Virus record (IMG/VR): IMGVR_UViG_3300036766_001793 | Coordinates: 101,485 to 165,484 of that record | Direction: 5' to 3' (one strand) | Origin: a virus | DNA length: 64,000 bases | In this document: positions 1 to 39,200 of the stretch, piece after piece | Numbering within the stretch: the stretch's first letter is position 1 | How the letters are laid out: each line of letters starts with the position of its first letter | Made by a program: the position numbers and the translations under genes | Notes under the pieces: generated by a model | Databases searched by the model: none | Told to the model about the DNA's origin: nothing | The model's input: only the letters and a program-made list of their open reading frames with translations

Positions 1-232
1 CCGCACGCCGGCTCGCCGCCGGCCTCACCGCTTTCGAGGCGGCGTACCACTCCCTTGGGGCCTTCCGTTACTCCGCCCTGAACTCCCTGAGGTCCGCCTG
101 CCTCAAGACCCGGCGACCGCTCCTGCGCGCCAGCTTCTTGTCCGCCCTGCTGTTTTCGAAGCACTTCCAAAAGATGCACCCGGCGTGCTTCGCGGAGACC
201 TTCTTGTAGACGTCCTGCACGCGCCCATCCTA

Positions 233-322
233 TGGAGGAAGGGAGGGGAGTCGAACCCCCACGCCCCTCTCGGGGCAACCCGCTCTCAAGGCGGGCGCCG
301 CCACCGTTCGGCTGGCCCTTCC
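233..322 (-). tRNA. tRNA-Ser(TGA)
   Basis: Cloverleaf on the reverse complement; anticodon loop CTTGAGA, long variable arm, GGTTCGA T-loop, encoded CCA. Confidence 0.93.
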
Positions 323-323
323 G

Positions 324-722
324 CTAGCCCCAGATGCTGGTGCGCCTCGGCATGTGCGGGCGTCCCGCCAGCTTCGTCCGGTCGAAGACGGGGAACACGA
401 GCAACGGGCGCTCCGACTGTGCCATCCCGTCCAGGAAGTACGCCTTCCAGATGTCGCCGCCGTCCTCGCCCAACCCGGTGAGTGTGATGAGCACCCCGGG
501 GAGCTTGGCGGAGGCGGCGATCATGTCCTCCTCCCACTGGTACCACTTCAACTCGCTGGACGACCACCCGTCCCGGTCGAAGATCTCCTCCCCGAGGGCG
601 GCGTGCAGTGCCTCAATGTAGTCGGCCCTCGGCGCCTGCAACGGGAGGAGCGACGTGTGCCCGTCGAGCTCTTGGTCCGTGAGCGGCCTCAGCTCCACCC
701 TGAACTGCGTGTGATAGCCCAT
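324..722 (-). CDS. Conserved phage hypothetical protein (MGYHTQF...KWY...GEDGGDIWK)
   Basis: ORF fills the gap between two tRNAs; AGGAG RBS before ATG at 722. Confidence 0.75.
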   Translation of the reverse strand: MGYHTQFRVELRPLTDQELDGHTSLLPLQAPRADYIEALHAALGEEIFDRDGWSSSELKWYQWEEDMIAASAKLPGVLITLTGLGEDGGDIWKAYFLDGMAQSERPLLVFPVFDRTKLAGRPHMPRRTSIWG

Positions 723-736
723 AGCTCGTCTCCTTG

Positions 737-829
737 TGGAGGAAGGTAAGGGGTTCGAACCCTTGGGCCGCGCAAACCGCGACCACGCGCTTTCCAAGCG
801 CGCCCGATAATCCCCTCCGGCAACCTTCC
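737..829 (-). tRNA. tRNA-Ser(GGA)
   Basis: Anticodon loop TTGGAAA, long variable arm, CCA end. Confidence 0.93.
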
Positions 830-830
830 A

Positions 831-1049
831 TCAGCGGCGGATCACGTGCCCGAAGTGCCAGTACCCGCACCCGTGCAGGTAGGCGGCCATCCCCGGGTTC
901 TCGAAGACGGCCATGGCCGCCTCAGCGTCCTCTCGGACGTAGTAGCACCTCTTGTTGGCCTGGTCGCAGAGTATCCGACCGCCCTTGGCCACGTAGGCCT
1001 TGGGCTCGTCGTTGATCCTACCGGGCCTGAGGTAGAACTCGATAGACAT
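831..1049 (-). CDS. Small hypothetical protein with Cys/His motif (C...HGCGYWH)
   Basis: ORF between tRNAs; TACCAT box 6 nt upstream of ATG. Confidence 0.7.
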   Translation of the reverse strand: MSIEFYLRPGRINDEPKAYVAKGGRILCDQANKRCYYVREDAEAAMAVFENPGMAAYLHGCGYWHFGHVIRR

Positions 1050-1070
1050 GCGGACATGGTACCGAGATGC

Positions 1071-1145
1071 TGGTGGATCTGGCGAGAGTCGAACTCGCAT
1101 TCCCTCGTTGCGACGGAGGTGTTCTCCCATTGCCACTACAGACCC
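1071..1145 (-). tRNA. tRNA-Ala(CGC)
   Basis: G3:U70 pair, A73, loop GTCGCAA, CCA end; one mismatch in the anticodon stem. Confidence 0.85.
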
Positions 1146-1378
1146 AACTTGGAGGCTCTCCACTTCCTCATGGAGAGTTTGTGGCACTCGCGGCACTTGC
1201 GCTTCTCCACCCGACCATCAGCTGGACTGGCCTGCGTCTGGCGGTGCGCTCCGCGTGTAAGGCGGCCGCCTTCGCATTCCCCCAAACTCGAGAACCAGGT
1301 CGCAGTGATCAATCCGCGCCTGGTTGCTTCTGCGAGCGGTTTTGTGCCCTGGCAACGCCCCGAGGGACGTTTGGCCAT
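1136..1378 (-). CDS. Small hypothetical or degenerate Zn-finger ORF (KCRECHK)
   Basis: AGGAG upstream; CxxC near the C-terminus; overlaps tRNA-Ala by 10 nt. Confidence 0.35.
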   Translation of the reverse strand: MAKRPSGRCQGTKPLAEATRRGLITATWFSSLGECEGGRLTRGAHRQTQASPADGRVEKRKCRECHKLSMRKWRASKLGL

Positions 1379-1399
1379 GCAGTTTCCACCGTTCTCCTA

Positions 1400-1475
1400 T
1401 GGTCCCTCGTACCGGAGTCGAACCGGTCGTCTCCTACTCGACAGGCAGGCATGTTGGCCGATACACCAACGAGGG
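1400..1475 (-). tRNA. tRNA-Asp(GTC)
   Basis: Loop CTGTCGA, canonical T-arm, CCA end. Confidence 0.9.
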
Positions 1476-1480
1476 GTGTC

Positions 1481-1621
1481 CCGACGCCCTGCGGGGGCTT
1501 CCCCGCACTCCCCGGCCCGGCGGCCATCCCTTCGCGGGGGCGTTGCGATGCGCCGCTGGCTCGGCTAAGTCCCGGGCTGCGCCCTGGTATCCGGCGGCGG
1601 CCCCTTAGTCCGGGGCGTCGG
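1481..1621 (-). ncRNA. Putative structured ncRNA (~140 nt)
   Basis: 9-bp closing stem CCGACGCCC/GGGCGTCGG enclosing hairpins; sits exactly between two tRNAs. Confidence 0.5.
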
Positions 1622-2429
1622 TGCTGTGGTGCCGGCAGAGGGATTCGAACCCCCAATGCGCGGACGCGCCTGCTCTACAGGCAGGTGCCCTTCCTACTGG
1701 GCGTCGCCGGCGTGCTGCCCCACGATGGGGTTGCCCTGGCGGAACTCCGAGAAGGACCTGGCCCTCCCGTCGCCCCCTGGCCCCGAAGAGCTCGAGCGGC
1801 GCGAGGCCGGCGGCCGGCCTCGATGCGGCGCTGAGCCTCTGGTCCACCACCTGGCGTCCCCTGAGGTTGCTGTAGCTGGTCAGCAGGATCTCGCCCCCGG
1901 CGACGTGGGCCCTCTTGTTGCTCCTGGCCTCGCCCCGCCACTGGGAGGCCGCCCTGGCGTCCCTCGGGTCGAGGAACAGGGTCGCGTCGCTCCACGGGCC
2001 GCCGTCCCTGGAGGACCGGCCGTCCTTGAAGGAGTACGACCCGCCCATCTTGGTCCTGAAGCCTGTCTCGCCACGCTGCAGGCGGCCAGGCTCCTGCGTC
2101 GCGCTTGGCCCGCCGCTGGGCGGCCCAGGGCTCCTGTGGGCGGCGGCCGAGCCACTGGGCAGCTGGTCGGGCCGGGCCGCCTCCGGTTTCGGCCGCCCCT
2201 GGCCGAACCGCTCACCGCGTTCCCCGTACCGTTTCGCCCACTCCTGCCTGGCCCGCTCGCCTATCGCCCTGCCTGGGTGGCCCCCTGCCGGGGCCTCGTA
2301 GTACCGCCCGCCCCTCGGGCCGACCTTGACGTCGGCGCCTGCCGGGGCTCTGCCCCTCCTGCCGAGGTGCACGCGGTTGACCTCGCCGGAGAGCGCGATG
2401 ACTGAGTCCAGGGTGGAGGCGAGGTCCAT
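1605..2429 (-). CDS. GPRGG-motif protein 1 (3' end uncertain, possible frameshift)
   Basis: RVHLGRRGRAPAGADVKVGPRGGRYY; the ORF as read runs through tRNA-Tyr. Confidence 0.7.
   Translation of the reverse strand: MDLASTLDSVIALSGEVNRVHLGRRGRAPAGADVKVGPRGGRYYEAPAGGHPGRAIGERARQEWAKRYGERGERFGQGRPKPEAARPDQLPSGSAAAHRSPGPPSGGPSATQEPGRLQRGETGFRTKMGGSYSFKDGRSSRDGGPWSDATLFLDPRDARAASQWRGEARSNKRAHVAGGEILLTSYSNLRGRQVVDQRLSAASRPAAGLAPLELFGARGRREGQVLLGVPPGQPHRGAARRRRPVGRAPACRAGASAHWGFESLCRHHSTDAPD
1627..1711 (-). tRNA. tRNA-Tyr(GTA)
   Basis: Loop CTGTAGA, variable arm, CCA end. Confidence 0.92.
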
Positions 2430-2476
2430 CCGCATACCATACCGCCGGCACCAACGGAATGGTACCCTTGTGCTGC

Positions 2477-2550
2477 TGGCTCCGGCGCAGGGAGTCGAAC
2501 CCCGATGAACAGGTTAACAGCCTGTCGTCTTACCCTTGGACGACGCCGGA
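2477..2550 (-). tRNA. tRNA-Asn(GTT)
   Basis: Loop CTGTTAA, CCA end. Confidence 0.93.
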
Positions 2551-2570
2551 ATGCATAGCTGACGCTGCTT

Positions 2571-2638
2571 TGACGCGGGCCGTCCGTCTCGAGCGGACGC
2601 CTCCCCGAGGGGGTGTGCTGTCTTTACACCAGGCCTGC
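2571..2638 (-). ncRNA. tRNA-like RNA with a stunted anticodon arm
   Basis: Acceptor-like stem, D-arm GTGT/GCAC, T-arm GTCCG-CTCGAGA-CGGAC; anticodon arm only CCCC-CTC-GGGG; ends TCA. Confidence 0.6.
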
Positions 2639-2641
2639 GCT

Positions 2642-2714
2642 TGGAACCCGCCGGCCGAGTCCAACGGCCACCTCCGGCCCCGCGGCCGGTGCGCTGACGC
2701 TACGCCAGACGGGT
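2642..2714 (-). ncRNA. tRNA-like RNA or pseudo-tRNA with a 6-nt anticodon loop
   Basis: Full cloverleaf with CCA; loop CGCGGG has no U33; T-loop TTGGACT. Confidence 0.7.
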
Positions 2715-2719
2715 TGCTT

Positions 2720-2805
2720 TGGTCGAAGAGGAGGGGGTCGAACCCTCACGCCCTTCCGGGCACAGGCCTCTCATGCCTGCGCGTATGCCGTTTCGCCACT
2801 CTCCG
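2720..2805 (-). tRNA. tRNA-Leu(GAG)
   Basis: Loop ATGAGAG, long variable arm, A73, CCA. Confidence 0.9.
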
Positions 2806-3015
2806 GTTCTTGTGGGGGCGCGCTGAGCTCCAGTTGCTTTACGCCAGCGGCCCTGTGGGGCCTGTACCTCCCCCTGCTTGGCTATGCCCGGGAGCCGTCC
2901 TCCGACCCGGTGGTCGCCGGGCGCGGCGGGCCCTTGGGCCCAGACGGCCCCTGCGGGGACGCCTGGGTCTGCGGCTCCGGGGCCTTCGGTCTCTCGAGCA
3001 CCTGCGTCTGGGCCG

Positions 3016-3273
3016 TCATGCGGTCGCCGGCTTGGGCACGTTTCCGTACCAGCGCTCTATGACCTCCAGCGGGCGCCAGGCCTCTGCCGGGCACTCGGAG
3101 AACCCTTCCTGGGCCCGCCCGGTGAAGTTCACCCTCCGCTCGAGGCGGGCCGCCTGGAGCTCGGGGTACCTGTCGCAGTATTCGCAGGCCGCCGGCGCGT
3201 GGAGGACCTGCGCGTCGCAGTGCGGGAACGGCGCGTCGGAGTCGAACCCGTCGCGCTCCCTGGTGAATCTCAT
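3016..3273 (-). CDS. Phage hypothetical metal-binding protein (FPHCD...LHAP..CEYCD)
   Basis: AGGAG RBS; Cys/His motif. Confidence 0.75.
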   Translation of the reverse strand: MRFTRERDGFDSDAPFPHCDAQVLHAPAACEYCDRYPELQAARLERRVNFTGRAQEGFSECPAEAWRPLEVIERWYGNVPKPATA

Positions 3274-3294
3274 CTCGTGTTCTCCTACTCTTCT

Positions 3295-3369
3295 TGGTAC
3301 CTCCGGCGGGATTCGAACCTGCACTTCCTGGATTAAAAGTCCAGTACGCTGCCATTACGTCACAGAGGC
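3295..3369 (-). tRNA. tRNA-Lys(TTT)
   Basis: Loop CTTTTAA, CCA. Confidence 0.93.
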
Positions 3370-3382
3370 ACCTTACACATTC

Positions 3383-3458
3383 TGGAGCGGCCGGCGGGGC
3401 TCGAACCCGCGGTCTCCGCCTTGGCGAGGCGGCGCGCTGCCAGCTGCGCCACGGCCGC
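3383..3458 (-). tRNA. tRNA-Gly(GCC)
   Basis: Loop TCGCCAA (C33), U73, CCA. Confidence 0.9.
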
Positions 3459-3598
3459 GAAGGGGGGGCGCATTGCGCCCCCGGTGGAATCCTACTCCGG
3501 GGACTGGCCCCGTTTCAGATTCGCTATTGCGGGGGACCGCCTGCCCCTTCCCCACGCACTCCGGCCCCCTCACCTGCGGGGCCGGCCCCGGACTTCCT
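3459..3598 (-). ncRNA. Putative structured ncRNA (~140 nt)
   Basis: Several GC hairpins, no credible ORF, between tRNAs. Confidence 0.4.
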
Positions 3599-3675
3599 TG
3601 GTCAGTGAGGAGGGAGTCGAACCCACGGCCTCTTCGTCCCGAACGAAGCGCTCTGCCAGACTGAGCTACACACTG
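3599..3675 (-). tRNA. tRNA-Pro(CGG)
   Basis: Loop TTCGGGA, CCA. Confidence 0.92.
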
Positions 3676-3679
3676 ACAT

Positions 3680-4030
3680 TCTAGGCCGCCACGCGGCTGG
3701 TCACCAATTTTGGTTCGGCCCTCGCCAGGCCCAGCGGCGGTCAAGCCTCTGGCTCTCCCCGGGTCGGGCCTCCCCTCAACGACTGTCGACCGTCCGACCC
3801 GGCCCGGTGACTAGCCGACACCTGGTCCTGACAGCCTCACGTAGCCTAATCGGCAACGCCCGCTTCCCGCGCGCCGGTATGCCCTCTCGCTGGCCTCCGC
3901 CTGGCTGAGGCGCGCGATCGGTCTTGGGAGGGGGCCGACCGCGCCGCGGCGGTCAACCCGCGAGGGCCGGCCCCCTCCCTCGGGGGCGGTGACTGGCCGC
4001 CGTCCTCTCATCAGTCCGATCCTAATACAA
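3680..4030 (-). ncRNA. Putative large structured ncRNA(s) (~350 nt)
   Basis: Long helices (CGGCTAGTCACC/GGTGACCAGCCG; CCGGGTCGG/CCGACCCGG); motifs shared with other spacers; no credible ORF. Confidence 0.55.
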
Positions 4031-4034
4031 CCTT

Positions 4035-4108
4035 TGGTCAGGGAGGAGGGGGACGATCCCTCTCCACGCGGTCCCAAACCGCGAATGCAGCCCCTACACC
4101 ACTCCCTG
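4035..4108 (-). tRNA. tRNA-Pro(TGG), atypical T-loop
   Basis: Loop TTTGGGA; T-loop ATCGTCC; CCA. Confidence 0.82.
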
Positions 4109-4109
4109 G

Positions 4110-4275
4110 TTAGCGTCGCCCAGTCCTACTCCGATATGGCCATCTCTCAAAGAGTACCGAGCTCTCGGTTGGGCCGCCCGCCAGCATCTCCCGGGGGGCG
4201 GTCGTCCCTCAGCGCCTTTCGCCCTCTCCCCGGCGTCGGTGACTGGCCGACACAGGTTACCGAGAGATCATCGCA
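4110..4275 (-). ncRNA. Putative structured ncRNA (~165 nt)
   Basis: CTCTCGGT/ACCGAGAG helix enclosing the recurrent GTCGGCCAGTCACCG motif. Confidence 0.45.
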
Positions 4276-4277
4276 AT

Positions 4278-4354
4278 TGGTCAAGCTGGCGGGGATCGAA
4301 CCCACGGCCTCGTGACCCCCAGTCACGCGCGCTGCCAAACTGCGCCACAGCCTG
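4278..4354 (-). tRNA. tRNA-Pro(GGG)
   Basis: Loop CTGGGGG, CCA. Confidence 0.92.
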
Positions 4355-4355
4355 A

Positions 4356-4526
4356 TGGCCCCGCGGCGCCAGGTTCGCCCCTGCAATCCCCCTCTTCGGG
4401 GGCCGGGGCCCTCCGGCCCTCGGGGCCGGCCTGGCGTGAAGGGAGTTACCGCCCGGCGGGGGGAGCTTGCCTTGCCACCCGCCGGGGGCCCGAGGTGGTC
4501 AGCGGACGGCAAGCCGCCCGCGGGGT
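4356..4526 (-). ncRNA. CCA-terminated non-tRNA structured RNA (~170 nt)
   Basis: 5' CCCCGCGG pairs with 3' CCGCGGGG followed by CCA; internal multi-stem domain. Confidence 0.55.
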
Positions 4527-4529
4527 TTC

Positions 4530-4603
4530 TGGGGTGCAGGACGGGATTCGAACCCGTATCAGCTGGGTCACAGCCGGCCGTTCTGCCCTTGAACTACCCG
4601 CAC
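4530..4603 (-). tRNA. tRNA-His(GTG)
   Basis: Loop CTGTGAC, C73, CCA; no encoded G-1. Confidence 0.9.
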
Positions 4604-4704
4604 ATGGGGCCCCGTTGACTGCGGGCCCATTCCGCGACCGGCACGGAGCTCACACCGGCAGCTTGGCCTGGCCCTCGCGGACGCGTAGGAGGCTCTAAGG
4701 TGGA

Positions 4705-4778
4705 TGGTGGCCTCGAGGGGACTCGAACCCCTTCCTCGTCCTTGAGAGGGACGTGTCCTGCCGTTAGACCACGAGGCC
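4705..4778 (-). tRNA. tRNA-Glu(CTC)
   Basis: Loop CTCTCAA, CCA. Confidence 0.93.
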
Positions 4779-4815
4779 GCGGCCTGAGGCCGCGCTCTCG
4801 GCCTGGCTGGGTGGG

Positions 4816-4890
4816 TGGTGGTCCCGGCGGGGGTCGAACCCGCCCCTGGCGCTTGAAAGGCGCCCGTCCTGACCGCTAGACCACGGGACC
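4816..4890 (-). tRNA. tRNA-Glu(TTC)
   Basis: Loop CTTTCAA, CCA. Confidence 0.93.
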
Positions 4891-4891
4891 G

Positions 4892-5050
4892 TGGCTGCTT
4901 GCCCCCGGGTGAGCCAGTTCTTCGCTGGCGGCCGAGTCGGTACCGGTTTTCCCCGGGCGCAGTGGCCCGCCACTATTCGCGGCGCGGCGACTGGCGGCTC
5001 GTTCGGCCCTCCGACCGGGCCTGGCCGCTACGCTGCGCGCCGCTAGGCGG
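4892..5050 (-). ncRNA. Putative structured ncRNA (~160 nt)
   Basis: Hairpin-rich; shares GAGGGCCGAAC with the 3680-4030 element. Confidence 0.45.
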
Positions 5051-5053
5051 ATG

Positions 5054-5128
5054 TGGTACCCGCGCCGGGAGTCGAACCCGGACCTCAACTTTAGGGGAGT
5101 TGCGTCCTATCCATTGGACCACGTGGGC
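5054..5128 (-). tRNA. tRNA-Arg(CCT)
   Basis: Loop CCCCTAA (C33), CCA. Confidence 0.9.
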
Positions 5129-5135
5129 ATCTGTC

Positions 5136-5282
5136 TGGCGGCGGGGATGGCGCCCCGCCGCGATCTGAAGGTTCCCGCTGAGACCAGCCCCGCGGGAAGT
5201 GACCCCCGGTGACTACTAGCCGGCGGACTATACCCCCCTGGGGCCGTCCTGAACCGCGATCGGAGGGCGCCGCGCGCCCGCC
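5136..5282 (-). ncRNA. CCA-terminated non-tRNA structured RNA (~147 nt)
   Basis: GGCGGG/CCCGCC-G-CCA acceptor-like end; GGCGCCC/GGGCGCC helix. Confidence 0.55.
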
Positions 5283-5287
5283 TTCTC

Positions 5288-5362
5288 TGGTGCCCCAGGA
5301 CGGAATCGAACCGCCTGCTCCCTCCGTGTAGAGGAGGAGCTCTTCCGGTGAGCTACTGGGGC
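5288..5362 (-). tRNA. tRNA-Val(TAC)
   Basis: Loop TCTACAC (C33), A73, CCA. Confidence 0.88.
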
Positions 5363-5422
5363 GAGTCATCCCCCAGATAGTACCGGGGGCGGATTAGGTA
5401 TTCGCGGGGCTCTCCGGCCCCT

Positions 5423-5485
5423 TGGCGGGCCGCCGGGCGGGGCGTAGCCCCGCCGCTGGCTGGTGTGAATCTGCCATAGCGACCC
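5423..5485 (-). ncRNA. Minimal CCA-terminated tRNA-like RNA (~63 nt)
   Basis: 7-bp GGGTCGC/GCGGCCC + G + CCA; GGCGGGG-CTACG-CCCCGCC hairpin; no anticodon arm. Confidence 0.5.
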
Positions 5486-5498
5486 CTTTCGGCTTGAT

Positions 5499-5573
5499 TG
5501 GCAGGAGCGGCGGGAATCGAACCCGCATCTTCAGTTTTGGAGACTGGCGCCCTAGCCTTTGGACGACGCACCT
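5499..5573 (-). tRNA. tRNA-Trp(CCA)
   Basis: Loop CTCCAAA, G73, CCA. Confidence 0.92.
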
Positions 5574-5587
5574 ACTGCCTGAATGAC

Positions 5588-5593
5588 AGGATA
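5588..5593 (-). promoter_or_regulatory. Putative -10 box (GG-TATCCT) for the tRNA array
   Basis: TAnnnT hexamer 15 nt upstream of the first tRNA; same pattern as other promoters in the window. Confidence 0.5.
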
Positions 5594-5633
5594 CCGCGCC
5601 GGCCGCGGCTTGTACACCCCGCCCGGGCGCTTT

Positions 5634-6071
5634 TCAGTGTTTCCCCAGCCGCTCGAGGAATGAGATGAAGCGCCCGTTGGTCAGGGCCCCGGGCCTCCTG
5701 GACCTCATGTACCTGATGAGCTCCGGCCCGGATCTGCCCGTCAGCTTGTGGACGGCCATCGCGTTGACGAGGGAGGACCTGTTCAGGCCGGCCGCGCAGT
5801 GGACCAGCACGCGCCCGCCGGACGACACGGCGGAGCACACCCTGGAGACCACCTCGTCGAGGTCCTCGCGGTCCGGGAGTGGCCCGTCCTCTATCTGCCA
5901 CCTGAGCTCTGTGAACGGCCCGCGGCCGCCGCCGCCGGAGAACGGTGGGTCCCCGTTGAGGTTCACCACGTAGTCTATGCCGAGGTCGAGGACCTCGCCC
6001 TCGCCCTCCCGGCCCTGGACAGACCCGGACTGCCAGAGCCTGCCGGGGATGATCTCATAGAGCTCGGTCAT
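5634..6071 (-). CDS. Dual-specificity / protein-tyrosine phosphatase family
   Basis: VLVHCAAGLNRS (HCX5R) and an IEDG acid loop. Confidence 0.92.
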   Translation of the reverse strand: MTELYEIIPGRLWQSGSVQGREGEGEVLDLGIDYVVNLNGDPPFSGGGGRGPFTELRWQIEDGPLPDREDLDEVVSRVCSAVSSGGRVLVHCAAGLNRSSLVNAMAVHKLTGRSGPELIRYMRSRRPGALTNGRFISFLERLGKH

Positions 6072-7066
6072 CCGGCCGCCCGCCGGGAGCTGACGGCCGC
6101 GACGACCGCCGCCGGGAAGACCCCCTTGGCCAGAAGGCCGCTGACGAGTATGGCCTCGTCGTGTGAGTAGCTCTTCTGCGAGAGGAGCGGGTCCACCTCG
6201 ATGTCGATCTCTTGGTCGCCGAACAGGTCCGCCATCGGGTCGCTCTTCATGGCCTCCACGATGACGTGGTCGTCCTCCGCGGTCACGTCCAGGTCAGAAG
6301 CCCCGAGGGCCCTCTCCACGAGCCTGGTCGCCTTCTCCGCCTCTCCGTCGCTCCTGCCGCGCCCGTAGACCTCGAAGCAATCGTCTCGTGCGCTGATCTC
6401 GTACCCCGCGGTGGACCTGCCGTCCGCGAGCTTCCTGGCCTGCGGGATCTTGGCGGCGGAAAGGATTTCCCTGATCCTGGCAATGGTGCTCTCGAATGGC
6501 TCCTCGACGTCCACCGTCTGGGAGGTCCTCGGGGTTGGCTTGACCTCTCTGGTGGGGTTGGAGCTGGGCTGCTCGGCGACCACCGCCATCGACCCCGCCC
6601 CGCGCTTCGCTCCGGCCTCCTGGGCGGCCTTCCCGCGGGTGGGAACCTCGAAGAACCTGCCGCCGCGTGGGCCCTCCTGGACGAACACAGACGGCGGGGC
6701 CTCCTCCCCCTCGCGCAGGTACTGGCGCTCCTTCGGGAGCGGGGACCTCTCCCCGGAATCGGTCTCTTTGACGGCGAAGTACTCCTGCTTCGTCTTCTGC
6801 CTGGTGAGTGCCGTCGGATCATGCTCCGGGCCGCCGCGGCGCCCTTGCGCCTTGGCCACGAACCTGGATACCTCCGCCGCCAGATCGACTAGGCTATTGG
6901 CATAGCTGTTGGTCATCTTGGACTCCCTATCTGACTCCTCGAAGGACTTCCCCTGGTAGCCGTGGGCGTACGCAGCCCTGGCCTGGCGCTGGGCGCCAGC
7001 CTCGCTGGGGTACACGTGTCCGTGCTCGCCCCACTTGTAGCCGCCCTTGACCTTGTGAACTGGCAC
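6068..7066 (-). CDS. GPRGG-motif protein 2 (putative virion internal protein)
   Basis: RQYLREGEEAPPSVFVQEGPRGGRFF; N-terminal MPVHKVKGGYKWG module. Confidence 0.8.
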   Translation of the reverse strand: MPVHKVKGGYKWGEHGHVYPSEAGAQRQARAAYAHGYQGKSFEESDRESKMTNSYANSLVDLAAEVSRFVAKAQGRRGGPEHDPTALTRQKTKQEYFAVKETDSGERSPLPKERQYLREGEEAPPSVFVQEGPRGGRFFEVPTRGKAAQEAGAKRGAGSMAVVAEQPSSNPTREVKPTPRTSQTVDVEEPFESTIARIREILSAAKIPQARKLADGRSTAGYEISARDDCFEVYGRGRSDGEAEKATRLVERALGASDLDVTAEDDHVIVEAMKSDPMADLFGDQEIDIEVDPLLSQKSYSHDEAILVSGLLAKGVFPAAVVAAVSSRRAAG

Positions 7067-7075
7067 CGTTCTATC

Positions 7076-8074
7076 CTACGCCAGCGCCGGCCTGCCACCA
7101 AACCTGCGGGACACCGAGGTGGCCAGGTCCATCGCGTCCTCCAGCTCTGACTGCGGCGACGGGCCCTCCCGCCTGATGCGCTCCGCCACCAGCCTCACGG
7201 TCCCCTCCCATTCCTTCCGCTGTCCGTGGAGGGTCATGGATCCGCCCTGCGAGAACCAGAGCCGGTCATATTCCTCGGGGTGGTAGGTCTCCATCCAGCT
7301 CTCGTAGAACTGGGCCGGCACCCACCTGTGTACCTGCTCGCGGCACTCGAGCTCGGCCCTGTCGGCTTCCTTCATCTTCTGGTAGGTTCGCCCACCGAGG
7401 CCCCAGTGGTCCCAGGGGAAGTCCATCCACTTGCCTCCGCCGGCTGGCTCCCACCCGTCCTTGAAGACGAGCTCCCTGGAATCGAGGTCATCGAGGATGG
7501 CCATTCCGTACTGGCCGTCGCTGAACTCGGCGACTGCGGCCACGTCCCTGCTCAGGTATCTCTGGACAGCCGCTCTCTGCCTGTCCCTCATGCCCCTGAC
7601 GAACGGCGCGTACCGGCCGTCGTCCCGCCCCATCGCCTTGCCGGCGGCCTTAGCGACCTTCCCGCCGCCTCTGACGGCTATCGGCCTGGCTTCGAGCTCC
7701 ATGAGCTCCCCCGCCGACAGGTCGCGCGGTCTCGGTTCCCTCCTGAGCTCGAGCTTGGCCCTCGCCCTCGCCGCCTTCCGCCGCCCCGCAGTCCACTCCC
7801 TGTGGGCGTCGCTGCCGTCGGGAACGAAGAAGCGCCCACCGCGCTGGCCGGTCTGGACGTCCGCCCCCTGTGGGCCCTCCTCACCCTCGCGGAGGTACGT
7901 GCGGCGGCCGTCCTCTGGCGCCGCCTTCTCCTCCAGGGTGGCGCCCTCACGGATCTCCCTGATGGCCGCCACCATGTCAGAGTCGTCATTGAGGTCGTAT
8001 TCGGAGTCGTCGGAAGCCCACGGCACGACCCCCCTGGGAAGCTGGATCGGGACCGGTCGGTCAGGCATCGCCAC
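7076..8074 (-). CDS. GPRGG-motif protein 3
   Basis: EEKAAPEDGRRTYLREGEEGPQGADVQTGQRGGRFF. Confidence 0.8.
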   Translation of the reverse strand: MAMPDRPVPIQLPRGVVPWASDDSEYDLNDDSDMVAAIREIREGATLEEKAAPEDGRRTYLREGEEGPQGADVQTGQRGGRFFVPDGSDAHREWTAGRRKAARARAKLELRREPRPRDLSAGELMELEARPIAVRGGGKVAKAAGKAMGRDDGRYAPFVRGMRDRQRAAVQRYLSRDVAAVAEFSDGQYGMAILDDLDSRELVFKDGWEPAGGGKWMDFPWDHWGLGGRTYQKMKEADRAELECREQVHRWVPAQFYESWMETYHPEEYDRLWFSQGGSMTLHGQRKEWEGTVRLVAERIRREGPSPQSELEDAMDLATSVSRRFGGRPALA

Positions 8075-20059: not shown

Positions 20060-21646
20060 CTACTTCAGCGGGCGCTGGGCGTAGGCGGCCCCCTTGTACA
20101 CATTGGCCGAGCTCGGGACGACCACGGGATCTGAAGACCAGCGACCCATGCTCGGGTTGCGCTCGCCCGGACTCAGGGACGGGTGGTCGTTCCGAGCAGG
20201 GTCTTCATCGAGCCCAGCCGCAAACTCGGAGAAGATGTCCTCGGCGACGACCATGGCCGCCTGCTTGGCGACGTCTGGGTCCTCGTGCGGGTTAGTCCTC
20301 ATGAACAGGTCTGCGAGCGGGTCCACGAGGTCGTAGGCGTCGTCGTGGCTGAGGTCTCCCGCCCTGGCGGACCTGGCCCACTCCCGCTTGAACTGGCCCT
20401 GCAGCCGCCCTCCCGCCGGATCGTTGTCCGCCATGTCTCGCATGCGCTCGCCGTAGTCGTCGGCCGTGGCCTCACTCTCCTCCCTCGACCTCTGCGGCCT
20501 GCGGACCTTCAGCGACTGGACCTCCTCCACGTCCTTGGGGTGGAGCTGCCCGCCGCTGTCCGTGACGAACCGGCCGCCGCGCGGCCCCTGCTGGACGTTG
20601 GTCCCCTGCGGCGGCTGCTCGTCCGGCCTCAGGTAGCGGACGTCTTCGGCCGCCTTCTCCTCCCGGCGCTCGGCCGGCCAGTGACCCGTGCCCTCGTGCT
20701 CGGCCCAGGCGCAGAAGGCGTGCGGGTCGTCGACTGTGCCGCCGACGTGCTCCATGCACTTCGAGTGCGGCCCCTTCGAGACCGACTCCCAGAACTTCCT
20801 GGACGAGCCCCTGCCCCATCCCTTCGGCTTGCCGGCCTTGTTGGCGACCTCGCCGCTGGTCACGCTGCCGGAGTAGGGGCCCTCCGTCTCCGGGTGCTCT
20901 ATGTCGTGCGCCACCGACCCGTAGGCCGGGCGGGCCATCGACCCGTGGATCCCGTCGTCCTCCGGCTCGTCGGCCGGGTAGGACGGCTCGCCGACCGCCT
21001 TCAGGATCGAGTCGCTGACCATGACGACCGCGTCGAGGGACCAGGAGACTGAGCTCTCGAGCTCTTCGTCTGGGTCCACCTCTGGGCCCCTGGCCTTCGC
21101 GAGCCCCTCGCCCTTGAACGTCTTCCCGCTGCGGAGGGACGCCGTCTGGGTCAGGAGGTTGCTGCCGCTCGGCCTCCGCGGCGCCGGTTGGGCCGGCGGG
21201 GCCTTCGGCTTGAGGCTGAAGGTGTGCCCCTGGACGTCGGCGCCCTCGAGCATGTCGTCCCCGAGGATGCGTCGCGCGTCCGTCTCCCTGGTGGCCTGGA
21301 TCTCCTGCAGCCTCCCGCGGAGCTCCTGGATGCGCCTCATCTCCGGCGGGTTGCACTCGCCCTTCCTGGCCTTGTCGTACAGGTCCTTGTACTCGTCGAT
21401 GATCTTGTCTTCCTCGCCGTGCATCGGGTCGGCCGAGGCCTTCCTGTGCCTGAGGGTGACCGGGTGCTCCTCCGGATGGCCGAAATGGCGGTGGGTCAGC
21501 ACCTTCCGATCTGGGCCGGTCTCCGCGACGTGAACCGGCCTCTGCGTATAGGAGGCCTCCACCGCCGGCACCGGGCCGAGCGGGGCTTGGGTCCCGACGG
21601 ACATCCCCTGCTTGTTGACGACTGACTGGCCTACGGCGATAGTCAT
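20060..21646 (-). CDS. GPRGG-motif protein 5 (multi-segment, putative virion internal protein)
   Basis: EEKAAEDVRYLRPDEQPPQGTNVQQGPRGGRFV; many xxK(A/G) sites; C..H...DDPHAFCAW module. Confidence 0.8.
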   Translation of the reverse strand: MTIAVGQSVVNKQGMSVGTQAPLGPVPAVEASYTQRPVHVAETGPDRKVLTHRHFGHPEEHPVTLRHRKASADPMHGEEDKIIDEYKDLYDKARKGECNPPEMRRIQELRGRLQEIQATRETDARRILGDDMLEGADVQGHTFSLKPKAPPAQPAPRRPSGSNLLTQTASLRSGKTFKGEGLAKARGPEVDPDEELESSVSWSLDAVVMVSDSILKAVGEPSYPADEPEDDGIHGSMARPAYGSVAHDIEHPETEGPYSGSVTSGEVANKAGKPKGWGRGSSRKFWESVSKGPHSKCMEHVGGTVDDPHAFCAWAEHEGTGHWPAERREEKAAEDVRYLRPDEQPPQGTNVQQGPRGGRFVTDSGGQLHPKDVEEVQSLKVRRPQRSREESEATADDYGERMRDMADNDPAGGRLQGQFKREWARSARAGDLSHDDAYDLVDPLADLFMRTNPHEDPDVAKQAAMVVAEDIFSEFAAGLDEDPARNDHPSLSPGERNPSMGRWSSDPVVVPSSANVYKGAAYAQRPLK

Positions 21647-36677: not shown

Positions 36678-39200
36678 CTAGGTCGCCCTCCCCGCCAGGA
36701 GAGGGTTCCTCTTCCTGATGCCGCCGAACATCTCCTGGGCGTCCCCGAGGATCTGCATGACCGGCCCGTCGTCCGCCGCCCTTATGGCGAGCGCATTGGA
36801 CCAAAAGGCATCGCCGTGTCCATCCGAGGTCTCCACGGACCTGAGCGCCTTGTCGACGGCGACTATCTGGGAGGTCTGCCTCCGGTCGTCCAGCAGGATG
36901 ATGCCCATCTCGTCGTCGTCCGCGTAGAACCTCGACTCCATGGCCAGGGCCATCTGGGCCTTCGTCTTAGCGTTGAAGGCCATGCCCAGGGCCTGCCTGG
37001 GCATGTTGCGGTCCTCCATCTCCGCCCTGGTGTTATCGTAGTAGAACCGCCTGATCTTGAAGTGGTCGATGATCTGCCTCACCCTCTTCGCCTGGGACCG
37101 GTAGTCCATCCCGTCGAGGAACTCCTGGTAAACCTGGACCAGGTCCCCTGTCGGCATGAGGGCGAACACCGCCAGATGGGTCGGGTGCACCTGCTTCCCG
37201 ACGTCCATGCCGCCGTAACACCCGAGCGTGCCGACGGAGCTGAACGACTCGTCGAGGCCTATGGGTCTCAGCTGCCTGTCCACGCACGACTCGATGACCT
37301 CGATCGGGATGAAGGCGCTGATCGCGAGGACCGGAACGAGCATGTACTCGACCTGGTAGGCCCGGTCCTTGATCCTCTGCCTCGTCCTGGCCAGCCTCGC
37401 CTGGTCGAACTTCTCCGGCCAGAGCACCTGCCCATCCCCGAACTCAGCTGGGAACCTGCCCCAGAAGTAGGAGGCGGTGTCCTTCCTCTTGTAGAGGGTG
37501 TCCTCGTAGGACTGGGGAGTGCCGATCAGGATCAGGCTGTCATCCTCGTCCGGGAGCGACTCGAGCGACTGGGTGAAGATAGCTTCGATGCGCCGAATCT
37601 GCTTCGGCTCAAGCGCGTTGGCAAAATCCGATAAAATGTCATCACAATTATGCACAATTATGTTATATCTTAGTTGGTAAGTATGGTCCTCCTCCACGTT
37701 CAAGTTATACACCGTTCCAGTATAGTGTTCTATGCCTAGACTTACTACAGTCTGCCCATTGTGCGTAAGCACCAAGTCCTTGATCAGCTCATCGTGCTGT
37801 GTGCTGATGTTCGTCTTTGTGTGACACGACCTGCACAACGCGACCAGGTTGTCCACTGCGTTGTTCCATCGGTCCCTGTCTATGTGGTGTACGTCCAGCC
37901 GCCGCCCCAGAGCGTCGTCCGCCTCGGCTGCCATGCACCAAGCACACGACCGGCCGTACAACCCTCGAATTTGCTCCCTCAGCGACTCGGTGAACTCAGC
38001 TCCCGCCGCCCTGCGCCTTGTAGATGATCCACCCCGCCAGTTAGGATTAGATTCTCCTGAGAATCGTAATCCCCAATCAAGATTCTTACATTTTCGAGAG
38101 CAATATAGGACCCCTCCTCTCTCTACTGCATACCGCACTTTCGCAGGGGTGACTGTCCGCGTCCCCTCGCATCCGTCCCTAGCGCACGTGAAGATCGCTG
38201 GCCCACCCGCCCATCTACCATTCTTGATCCCCGTTCTGTCAGCGGCGTGATTATTGAACGCCACGACACATCCTTTTCCACAAAATCTCTGCCCATGCGC
38301 ATATCTGACGAAGAAACTGGCCCCACACTCCTCACACAATGACCTTCGCCTGGGTCTCCGGCCCTGCTCATCAAGCAGAGTCCCGGTCTCCAGCACGTCG
38401 CCAATTTCTATGTCCCCAGCGGCAATCCATCCGCGCTTCGTCAGAAACTGATGATTCGGGGTGACACGGATAACTTGCCTACCATACCCGACAAGTACTA
38501 GTTCCCCGTCATATGGGCGACTCTGGGCCTCCAGCACCTCACGATACTTGCCAGAATGTCCGACCACCCAATCCCCGGCCATGACCTCCGAGATGGGCCG
38601 ATAGCCCATCTTGCTCACCCGCACTTCCGTGTCCGGGGTGAAGCACACGAGGAACTTGGGATGAAGGCCGCGGACGGTCGACATGATCCCGTACGGGTCC
38701 ACTTGCCCGCGCCAGTGCACGCCGTCGCCGAAGGTGCAGTCGAAGTCCACCACGGACTCCGCCGCCTTCTTGTTGTCCGTCCACATCCGGCAGTAGGGGT
38801 TCGCGGAGATGAACTTCTTGATCTTCGTCGTGTGCTCTTGTGCCAGCGTGTCCTTGAACGACATCACGATCCCGTCCACGTCCTGCCAGGCCCTGAACAG
38901 CTTCCAGAAGCTGAAGGCGTGGTTCAGGACGGTGGACTTGAGGTGGCCGCGGGGGGCCAGGATGCACACCCTCGGGTGCTCCTGGGCTATCATCGCCCAG
39001 GTGTAGTGGATGGCCCCAAGCTCGAACTGGTGGTATTTCCGGTCGGCCAGGCGGAACTTCCGGCCGGCGAAGCTCTTCGGGAAGACGTGCATCAGGAAGA
39101 ACGGGAAGGACGCCTGCGCCGCCCTGATGGTGGCCAGCTCCTCGGCCGAGAAGGGCTCAACGGGGGCCTGCGGCTGGCTAGTCCTCCTCGTCGCCCTCAT
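36678..39200 (-). CDS. terL: Terminase large subunit with an intein
   Basis: APRGHLKST Walker A, RGLHP, LV/CDDIL Walker B, IGTP, GMDVG nuclease, HGDAFW. Confidence 0.93.
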   Translation of the reverse strand: MRATRRTSQPQAPVEPFSAEELATIRAAQASFPFFLMHVFPKSFAGRKFRLADRKYHQFELGAIHYTWAMIAQEHPRVCILAPRGHLKSTVLNHAFSFWKLFRAWQDVDGIVMSFKDTLAQEHTTKIKKFISANPYCRMWTDNKKAAESVVDFDCTFGDGVHWRGQVDPYGIMSTVRGLHPKFLVCFTPDTEVRVSKMGYRPISEVMAGDWVVGHSGKYREVLEAQSRPYDGELVLVGYGRQVIRVTPNHQFLTKRGWIAAGDIEIGDVLETGTLLDEQGRRPRRRSLCEECGASFFVRYAHGQRFCGKGCVVAFNNHAADRTGIKNGRWAGGPAIFTCARDGCEGTRTVTPAKVRYAVERGGVLYCSRKCKNLDWGLRFSGESNPNWRGGSSTRRRAAGAEFTESLREQIRGLYGRSCAWCMAAEADDALGRRLDVHHIDRDRWNNAVDNLVALCRSCHTKTNISTQHDELIKDLVLTHNGQTVVSLGIEHYTGTVYNLNVEEDHTYQLRYNIIVHNCDDILSDFANALEPKQIRRIEAIFTQSLESLPDEDDSLILIGTPQSYEDTLYKRKDTASYFWGRFPAEFGDGQVLWPEKFDQARLARTRQRIKDRAYQVEYMLVPVLAISAFIPIEVIESCVDRQLRPIGLDESFSSVGTLGCYGGMDVGKQVHPTHLAVFALMPTGDLVQVYQEFLDGMDYRSQAKRVRQIIDHFKIRRFYYDNTRAEMEDRNMPRQALGMAFNAKTKAQMALAMESRFYADDDEMGIILLDDRRQTSQIVAVDKALRSVETSDGHGDAFWSNALAIRAADDGPVMQILGDAQEMFGGIRKRNPLLAGRAT
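37647..38645 (-). mobile_element. TerL intein with Zn-finger/HNH endonuclease (333 aa)
   Basis: CFTPDT...TPNHQF...CxxC repeats, NPNWRGG, VHHID...N...NLVALCRSCH...IVHN/C; lower GC. Confidence 0.93.

Follow-up and report, generated by a model that had tools for sequence, protein, structure and literature searches.

Large phages commonly carry large arrays of transfer RNA (tRNA) genes, and the spacers inside such arrays are usually overlooked. What do these spacers encode? The virus record IMGVR_UViG_3300036766_001793 is a genome of 165,484 base pairs (bp) with 68% guanine plus cytosine (GC), and its final 64 kb (64,000 nucleotides [nt]) form the stretch analyzed here, called the window. At the upstream end of its tRNA array, where the genes follow in the order Trp, Val, Arg(CCT), Glu(TTC), Glu(CTC), His, and Pro(GGG), an initial annotation had flagged several spacers as closed by an acceptor-like helix followed by CCA while lacking a cloverleaf, and had proposed discrete RNAs with tRNA-type 3′ ends. 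We find that several of these spacers are as well conserved as the tRNAs and have defined, covarying folds, which makes them candidate additions to the few RNAs known from phage tRNA clusters (RNAC and RNAD of phage T4, GOLLD, and ROOL). The flagged spacers are probably single-copy, non-coding structured RNAs that are co-transcribed with the tRNAs and released by tRNA processing, in the manner of T4 RNAC and RNAD.

Spacers in the array are non-coding and are conserved in related phages

The source is a tailed phage, as indicated by PHROG matches to a large terminase, a portal, a ribonucleotide reductase, and an exonuclease, and CheckV places the completeness of the genome at 87%. ARAGORN identified 41 tRNA genes, all on the minus strand in a 12-kb array (genome 95112-107057), and the CCA end is encoded in 40 of these 41 calls. 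Numerous tRNA pairs in the array are only 1 to 13 nt apart. The array and its principal spacer RNAs, named here by the flanking tRNAs, are located in the window as follows; descending coordinates below read 5′ to 3′ along the minus strand.

233-5573, minus strand: portion of the array within the window, 19 tRNA genes
5363-5498, minus strand: Trp→Val spacer RNA, 136 nt, five helices
5129-5287, minus strand: Val→Arg spacer RNA, conserved core at 5256-5169 plus a 3′ hairpin
4604-4704, minus strand: Glu(CTC)→His spacer RNA, 101 nt
4355-4529, minus strand: His→Pro(GGG) spacer RNA, 175 nt, eight-helix fold (RNAalifold)

No noteworthy open reading frame (ORF) occurs in the spacers between 3459 and 5498, and their GC content is much the same at all three codon positions (0.65-0.80). 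The array spacers that do hold small genes show a GC content of about 0.9 at third codon positions, the strong signal typical of this genome. Thus, the flagged spacers are non-coding. Moreover, the conserved blocks described below contain 1- to 2-nt insertions and deletions, which excludes coding on either strand.

No close relative of the phage was found among GenBank phages or in IMG/VR. However, the gene for a dual-specificity phosphatase (5634-6071, minus strand), which adjoins the array upstream, has homologs of 51-73% identity in public metagenome assemblies, and the same downstream tRNA order is present on the homolog contigs L060, L062 to L064, L065 to L068, L070, and, in part, L082. 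L062 to L064 are mutually identical, as are L065 to L068, so the contigs amount to four further lineages, with L082 usable for the Trp→Val spacer only. The phosphatase homologs P0010, P0012, and P0014 have other genomic contexts and were dropped. Other routes yielded little: the terminase and the neighboring ORFs 20060-21646 and 7076-8074, used as queries against GenBank phages or IMG/VR, returned no usable relatives; ORF 6068-7066 returned one weak locus without tRNAs; the small array gene 3019-3273 returned only contigs without tRNAs; and scans of viral, metagenome, and genome collections with motifs and core patterns gave only chance matches (L002 to L059, L079, and L087) or the known L062 contig.

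Comparison with L060, L067, and L070 gave 70-84% identity over aligned columns for the Trp→Val, Val→Arg, and His→Pro spacers, and the same range includes the Glu→His spacer, for which the true ortholog is that of L070 only (the L060 sequence in that comparison is a different spacer). The flanking tRNAs of the same contigs show 64-91% and the phosphatase gene 71-76% identity to the window, both over aligned columns. Taken at 73-84%, the spacers are on a par with the flanking tRNAs and at or above the level of the phosphatase gene. In contrast, the spacers around the Pro tRNAs, compared with L060 only, reach about 62% over aligned columns, which is background at this base composition, so these spacers are not conserved. 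That they are unconserved while others are kept indicates that selection targets specific spacers rather than every spacer. Within a small, uncultivated group of GC-rich phages, selection thus appears to maintain at least three of them, the Trp→Val spacer, the Val→Arg core, and the His→Pro spacer, and probably also the Glu→His spacer. Lack of discrete transcripts and of covariation in related phages, or a match to tRNAs with introns or insertions, had been named at the outset as what would speak against discrete RNAs; at least three spacers proved to be conserved, structured, and covarying, and none matched an intron-bearing tRNA.

The His→Pro spacer RNA has a conserved eight-helix fold

The His→Pro spacer, which is 73-74% identical to its L060 and L070 orthologs over aligned columns, contains the best supported of these folds. 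Its terminal helix, P1, consists of 8 bp formed by CCCCGCGG (4525-4518) and CCGCGGGG (4366-4359). Helix P2 pairs 4515-4508 with 4471-4464, and helix P4 pairs 4436-4430 with 4373-4367, such that the 3′ strand of P4 continues directly into the 3′ strand of P1. The RNA ends in a CCA-U tail (4358-4355) that directly precedes tRNA-Pro. Over the 55 pairs of the fold, 95% of the alignment cells are paired, compared with 33-53% when the partners are slid by one to three columns, and 11 pairs show compensatory changes, a number matched by none of 500 shuffles. The changes are most extensive in P4, where both sides are altered at six of seven pairs (CGCCAGG/CCUGGCG in the window, GCCGUCC/GGACGGC in L060 and L070). 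P1 is 100% paired across the orthologs and includes one compensatory pair; hence, the terminal helix that had been proposed for 4356-4526 is present at those positions and is conserved. Its encoded CCA end is not, as both orthologs have UCA in its place: P1 is followed by CCA-U in the window, by UCA-CAGU in L060, and by UCA-U in L070. Finally, the alignment contains about 19 G-U cells and 3 A-C cells, an imbalance showing that the RNA has the same sense as the tRNAs.

The covariance model R1, built on this RNA, recovered the three orthologs only, with no paralog and no copy in L062. A below-threshold ARAGORN call at 4356-4427 (85% setting) was rejected as a tRNA, as it clashes with the covarying helix P4.

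The Trp→Val spacer RNA combines a long-range helix with local hairpins

In the Trp→Val spacer, a long-range helix, R, is formed between 5485-5479 and 5433-5427 and encloses two hairpins, H1 (5476-5473 with 5460-5457) and H2 (5453-5447 with 5443-5437). Two further hairpins lie 3′ of R: H4 (5421-5417 with 5410-5406) and H5 (5389-5383 with 5376-5370, loop UACUAU). Across five lineages, 91% of the cells at the 30 pairs are paired, compared with 36-57% when slid, and five pairs carry compensatory changes. Helix R itself, the closing helix of the 63-nt domain recognized earlier (5423-5485, GGGTCGC/GCGGCCC), is paired in 94% of cells in the five lineages; one of its pairs is compensatory, and at two others a change on one side leaves the pairing intact. 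The helix of that domain is thus upheld. The G-CCA that follows it is found in the window only; the four relatives have CUCCA, AAUGA, AAUAC, or UUUAC at this place, all forming the loop of another hairpin, H3, and three of the four thus have no CCA there. Indeed, H3 offers the 3′ strand of R a second, downstream partner in the four relatives, one that the window phage has lost through a 15-nt deletion. The arrangement suggests that R and H3 may be alternative pairings.

Hairpin H5 (5370-5389, minus strand) lies directly upstream of tRNA-Val, and its loop is invariant, apart from UACAAU in L070. Some 14 nt ahead of tRNA-Val, the loop as DNA would read TACTAT or TACAAT and so resembles a −10 box, and the site could be an internal promoter instead of, or besides, an RNA hairpin.

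The Val→Arg spacer RNA contains a nearly invariant core

The Val→Arg RNA is built around a core of about 85 nt that comprises an outer helix, a hairpin, Pa, and a long arm, Pb, containing CUAGUAGUCACCG. This core is nearly invariant in four lineages (79-84% identity over aligned columns) and is still recognizable in the distant lineage L062, where the covariance model R2 scores 70.5 bits. Insertions and deletions of 1 to 2 nt within the core exclude a coding region. Downstream, a 3′ hairpin (5161-5154 with 5145-5138) is also conserved, and one of its pairs shows a compensatory A-U to C-G change.

This hairpin bears on the closing helix GGCGGG/CCCGCC that had been assigned to 5136-5282, with CCCGCC-G-CCA at 5145-5136. 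The letters are present, and the comparative data contradict the helix: its 5′ strand (5282-5277) is unconserved, and it was rejected because its 3′ strand sits in the conserved local hairpin, within which the supposed discriminator G and the first C of CCA are also paired. CCA follows the 3′ hairpin in the window and L067 and is missing in L060 and L070.

The relatives contain an additional conserved module 3′ of the core (GGUGGGUGUGCCGG ... GGGUAAACAGCG ... CGCGGCAGCC), which the window phage lacks.

L060 6100-6279, L067 1045-1131, L070 1585-1667: extra module following the Val→Arg core

Other spacers and a recurrent loop motif

The Glu→His RNA ends in a hairpin with the invariant loop GCAGUCAACG, followed by CCCCA-U and then tRNA-His. 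It is 84% identical to its L070 counterpart over aligned columns, a comparison of two close sequences only. The hairpin and CCA (4607-4605) reported for 4605-4696 are present, the loop is invariant, and the CCA is kept in this single close relative; the stem, however, is weakened in L070. The remaining spacers of the region are as follows.

4891-5053, minus strand: Arg→Glu(TTC) spacer, 163 nt, non-coding, weakly conserved
3459-3598, 3676-4034, and 4109-4277, minus strand: spacers around three tRNA-Pro genes, non-coding, GC-rich, unconserved

Near the 3′ end of the Arg→Glu spacer, a hairpin covaries as judged by eye, without controls (GCCAG/CUGGC in the window, GCCGG/CCGGC in L060 and L062). 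The Pro-flanking spacers contain several hairpins with a C-Y-AGUCA loop. Related copies of this short motif, mostly in hairpin loops, recur in the minus-strand spacers 3676-4034, 4109-4277, 4604-4704, and 5129-5287, among them GUCGG-CCAGUCA-CCGAC, GGCGG-CCAGUCA-CCGCC, CGG-CUAGUCA-CCG, and the loop GCAGUCAACG of the Glu→His RNA. One stretch, CCAGUCAC, is exactly complementary to GUGACUGG in the anticodon arm of the adjacent tRNA-Pro(GGG). The motif could be a coincidence, or it could mark a site of pairing or a binding site common to these spacers. A paralogous family across the spacers was considered and rejected, as they have only a 13- to 17-nt motif (GTCGGCYAGTCACCG) in common, and model R2 found no copy of the Val→Arg RNA in the Pro spacers.

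The CCA triplets are incidental

Do the CCA triplets mark encoded tRNA-like 3′ ends? CCA is absent from two of two orthologs at His→Pro, two of three at Val→Arg, and three of four at Trp→Val, where the one relative with CCA at that place has it within the H3 loop; only at Glu→His does it persist, in the one close relative. Part of the triplet falls within paired or loop regions of conserved hairpins in two of the four cases. A helix followed by CCA occurs at eight sites, compared with 3.4 in dinucleotide shuffles, but this excess arises because structure in general is in excess over shuffles. When CCA was instead scored against helix ends in the real sequences, 8 of 41 CCA sites (19.5%) followed a helix of at least 6 bp, compared with 11.9% of all positions (P = 0.11), and several other trinucleotides scored higher than CCA.

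In three spacers, the CCA ends one base ahead of the next tRNA, and here the tRNA leaders provide an explanation. Bacterial RNase P (ribonuclease P) favors a pyrimidine at position −1. The 5′ leaders of all 41 tRNAs have the consensus C-A-Y, with C at −3 in 44%, A at −2 in 51% (background 18%), and a pyrimidine at −1 in 90%, and this consensus also holds after protein-coding spacers and in the relatives. With such a leader in a GC-rich genome, CCA-Y is expected before a tRNA. The triplets are thus incidental: they are leader positions −4 to −2 of the next tRNA where they adjoin it and otherwise lie in the loops or stems of conserved hairpins. More generally, a CCA just upstream of a tRNA in a GC-rich array should be taken with caution, as it reflects the C-A-Y leader and not an encoded tRNA-like 3′ end.

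Of the pattern initially described, at least three non-cloverleaf spacers with an acceptor-like closing helix and CCA, the lack of a cloverleaf and two of the helices hold, while one helix is contradicted and the CCA is not conserved. The tRNA-type 3′ ends built on CCA, and with them aminoacylation or a decoy role, find no support, as the CCA is unconserved and the C-A-Y leader explains the adjoining cases.

The spacer RNAs match no known RNA family

The initial annotation could match these RNAs to no family, and Rfam, ARAGORN, and our own covariance models bear this out. On the minus strand, ARAGORN made no tRNA call in the flagged spacers, either by default or when introns of 0-300 nt were allowed, nor did the Rfam tRNA model match them at E ≤ 10, so the spacers do not correspond to tRNAs bearing introns or insertions. 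Rfam searches at gathering thresholds and, over window 1-5700, at E ≤ 10 returned true tRNAs only. ARAGORN found no transfer-messenger RNA (tmRNA) in the genome and, at an 80% threshold, only implausible permuted calls overlapping true tRNAs; the Rfam tmRNA model matched tRNA-Ala only, below its threshold, and among the matches of the tmRNA and mascRNA models there were true tRNAs and no spacer. Models of self-cleaving ribozymes (hammerhead, hepatitis delta virus-like, twister, pistol, and hatchet) had no match in window 1-5700 at E ≤ 10, nor did the GOLLD and ROOL models at E ≤ 10. A candidate hammerhead at a CUGAUGA word in spacer 3676-4034 was rejected, as it has the wrong topology by eye and no Rfam match. 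The genome has no match to PF05731 (Ro/TROVE), and no Y-RNA family appears among the Rfam matches.

Probable release by tRNA processing and the alternatives

How might such RNAs arise? The order of the array is equal in the related phages. A scan of region 3300-6200 found neither a sigma-70-type promoter nor an intrinsic terminator, though the host promoter type may differ, and the lack of internal signals is compatible with a single long precursor. In the reading that we consider probable, the spacer RNAs would be transcribed with the tRNAs in one such precursor, and the RNase P cut at the 5′ end of each downstream tRNA would free their 3′ side. Endo- and exonucleases would trim the 3′ end of the upstream tRNA as far as its encoded CCA, and closing helices such as P1 of the His→Pro RNA would shield the freed RNA from exonucleases, so that stable RNAs could accumulate, as T4 RNAC and RNAD do (PMC9697503), and might act in trans. 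Because each spacer has a tRNA on either side and no promoter or terminator intervenes, maturation of these tRNAs would be expected to free discrete RNAs.

Several observations weigh against this reading. The comparison draws on only three to five independent lineages, and for His→Pro two of the three sequences share 89% identity, so that the covariation reflects few events. The modules are also gained or lost by lineage: L060 lacks Glu→His, L070 lacks Arg→Glu, L062 lacks His→Pro, and the window phage lacks the module that follows the Val→Arg core in its relatives, a pattern that fits dispensable or cis-acting modules equally with trans-acting RNAs. In addition, the phage encodes a PolyA_pol-family enzyme (see below), which leaves a small possibility that CCA is added post-transcriptionally to a trimmed terminal helix.

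The strongest alternative, although we consider it unlikely, is that the structures act only in cis: they would prevent misfolding of the GC-rich tRNAs or present sites for RNase E, RNase III, or RNase P and then be degraded, with no function of their own. Consistent with this, the elements are found exclusively between tRNAs, have no promoter or terminator of their own and no paralogs elsewhere, and vary in presence from lineage to lineage, and the Pro-tRNA spacers are structured yet unconserved. However, generic hairpins would suffice for insulation, yet the sequence of unpaired and loop regions is conserved as well as that of the tRNAs, as in the Val→Arg core and in GCAGUCAACG; the fold of the His→Pro RNA, with eight helices and several junctions, is maintained; and the close packing of many array tRNAs shows that processing needs no long spacers. 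Given the conservation of loops and junctions, the elaborate His→Pro fold, and neighboring tRNAs that need only 1 to 13 nt, we favor a function of the RNAs' own over a mere role in folding or processing of the precursor.

A bolder variant, to which we attach little probability, is that the His→Pro RNA is an expanded, tRNA-shaped mimic, with a four-way junction, P1 stacked on P4, and a YCA tail to which the PolyA_pol-family enzyme of the phage would add CCA, and that it would soak up a tRNA-directed defense nuclease or a tRNA-binding factor; the spacers would then be a new set of trans-acting RNAs traveling with tRNA arrays. Slightly less probable still is the general form proposed initially, in which the spacers would be tRNA mimics with an acceptor-like helix and CCA, encoded or added, serving as substrates of tRNA enzymes or as decoys for defense nucleases. 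Such mimicry would agree with the conserved 8-bp terminal helix of the His→Pro RNA, whose 3′ strand runs on from P4 as in the acceptor and T stems, with the 2-nt linker after the P1 5′ strand, with the single-stranded YCA tail, with the PolyA_pol-family enzyme, and with the excess of helix plus CCA over shuffles. However, that excess vanishes against the proper control, CCA is mostly missing in the His→Pro, Val→Arg, and Trp→Val orthologs, and the C-A-Y leader accounts for CCA beside tRNAs. Moreover, the RNAs have no T-loop, D-loop, or anticodon loop; no tRNA, tmRNA, or mascRNA model matches the spacers; and the stacked helices total 15 bp, compared with 12 bp in a tRNA.

Least credible is a peptide of 23-32 residues encoded by the Trp→Val spacer: a conserved AAGGAG-like box about 7 nt ahead of an invariant AUG-GCA and a frame open in five of five lineages, preserved even by the 15-nt deletion in the window, are offset by variable columns that are even over codon positions (9, 9, and 10 of 18), by between-lineage codon differences that mostly alter the amino acid (by eye), by open frames of about 30 codons being common at 70% GC, and by the Shine-Dalgarno-like box and AUG being strands of the covariation-supported helices R and H1, and we read the box and AUG as RNA structure.

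Relation to known phage RNAs

The genes of RNAC and RNAD lie in or beside the tRNA gene cluster of T4, and both RNAs are excised from tRNA precursors. The spacers described here occupy a similar position, interspersed with tRNA genes in the same orientation and lacking a terminator of their own. T4 has two such RNAs beside 8 tRNAs, and the present phage has at least three or four scattered among 41. RNAC and RNAD are small phage RNAs of unknown function that have been detected by Northern blot (PMC9697503). Like those described here, they are small non-tRNA RNAs of a tRNA-carrying phage, and the T4 RNAs accumulate in infection (PMC9697503). The phages differ greatly in host, GC content, and array size, and the RNAs are likened here by their position. 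GOLLD and ROOL are structured phage and prophage RNAs, also of unknown function, that are often found next to tRNA islands (PMC12286853). They are about 580-800 nt or more in length and form multimeric cages, whereas the present RNAs measure 100-190 nt.

Among tRNA-like RNAs ending in CCA (the tRNA-like domain of tmRNA, mascRNA, and YrlA), the resemblance lies in a terminal helix beside a single-stranded 3′ tail and in the four-way junction of the His→Pro RNA. Unlike these, the present RNAs have no T-arm or T-loop, and their CCA is unconserved. As for YrlA, no spacer matched in Rfam (if the library includes YrlA), and the genome lacks a Ro/TROVE protein. We would class the spacer RNAs as new families broadly akin to T4 RNAC and RNAD, GOLLD, and ROOL.

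Additional features of the array and genome

tRNA-His (4530-4603) has no encoded G−1; its leader ends in U, and its discriminator is C73. A Thg1-family protein is encoded within the array of the distant relative L062 (L062 17973-18662), and no Thg1 match was found in the present genome, which is 87% complete by CheckV. One ARAGORN call (2642-2714, minus strand), located 5 nt downstream of tRNA-Leu(GAG), has an abnormal anticodon loop (type undetermined, with a two-base "anticodon," cg) and an odd T-loop.

Outside the window, a 285-codon ORF (genome 4570-4896, minus strand; locus L086) matches the PolyA_pol nucleotidyltransferase family with 63 bits and is a candidate CCA-adding or repair enzyme, although nearly all of the tRNAs encode CCA. 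Finally, the large terminase ORF (36678-39200, minus strand; 840 amino acids) contains an HNH-endonuclease region between the terminase halves (about residues 280-480), which looks like an intein or a homing-endonuclease insertion, and GenBank phage matches to this ORF are restricted to another internal segment (residues 182-270).

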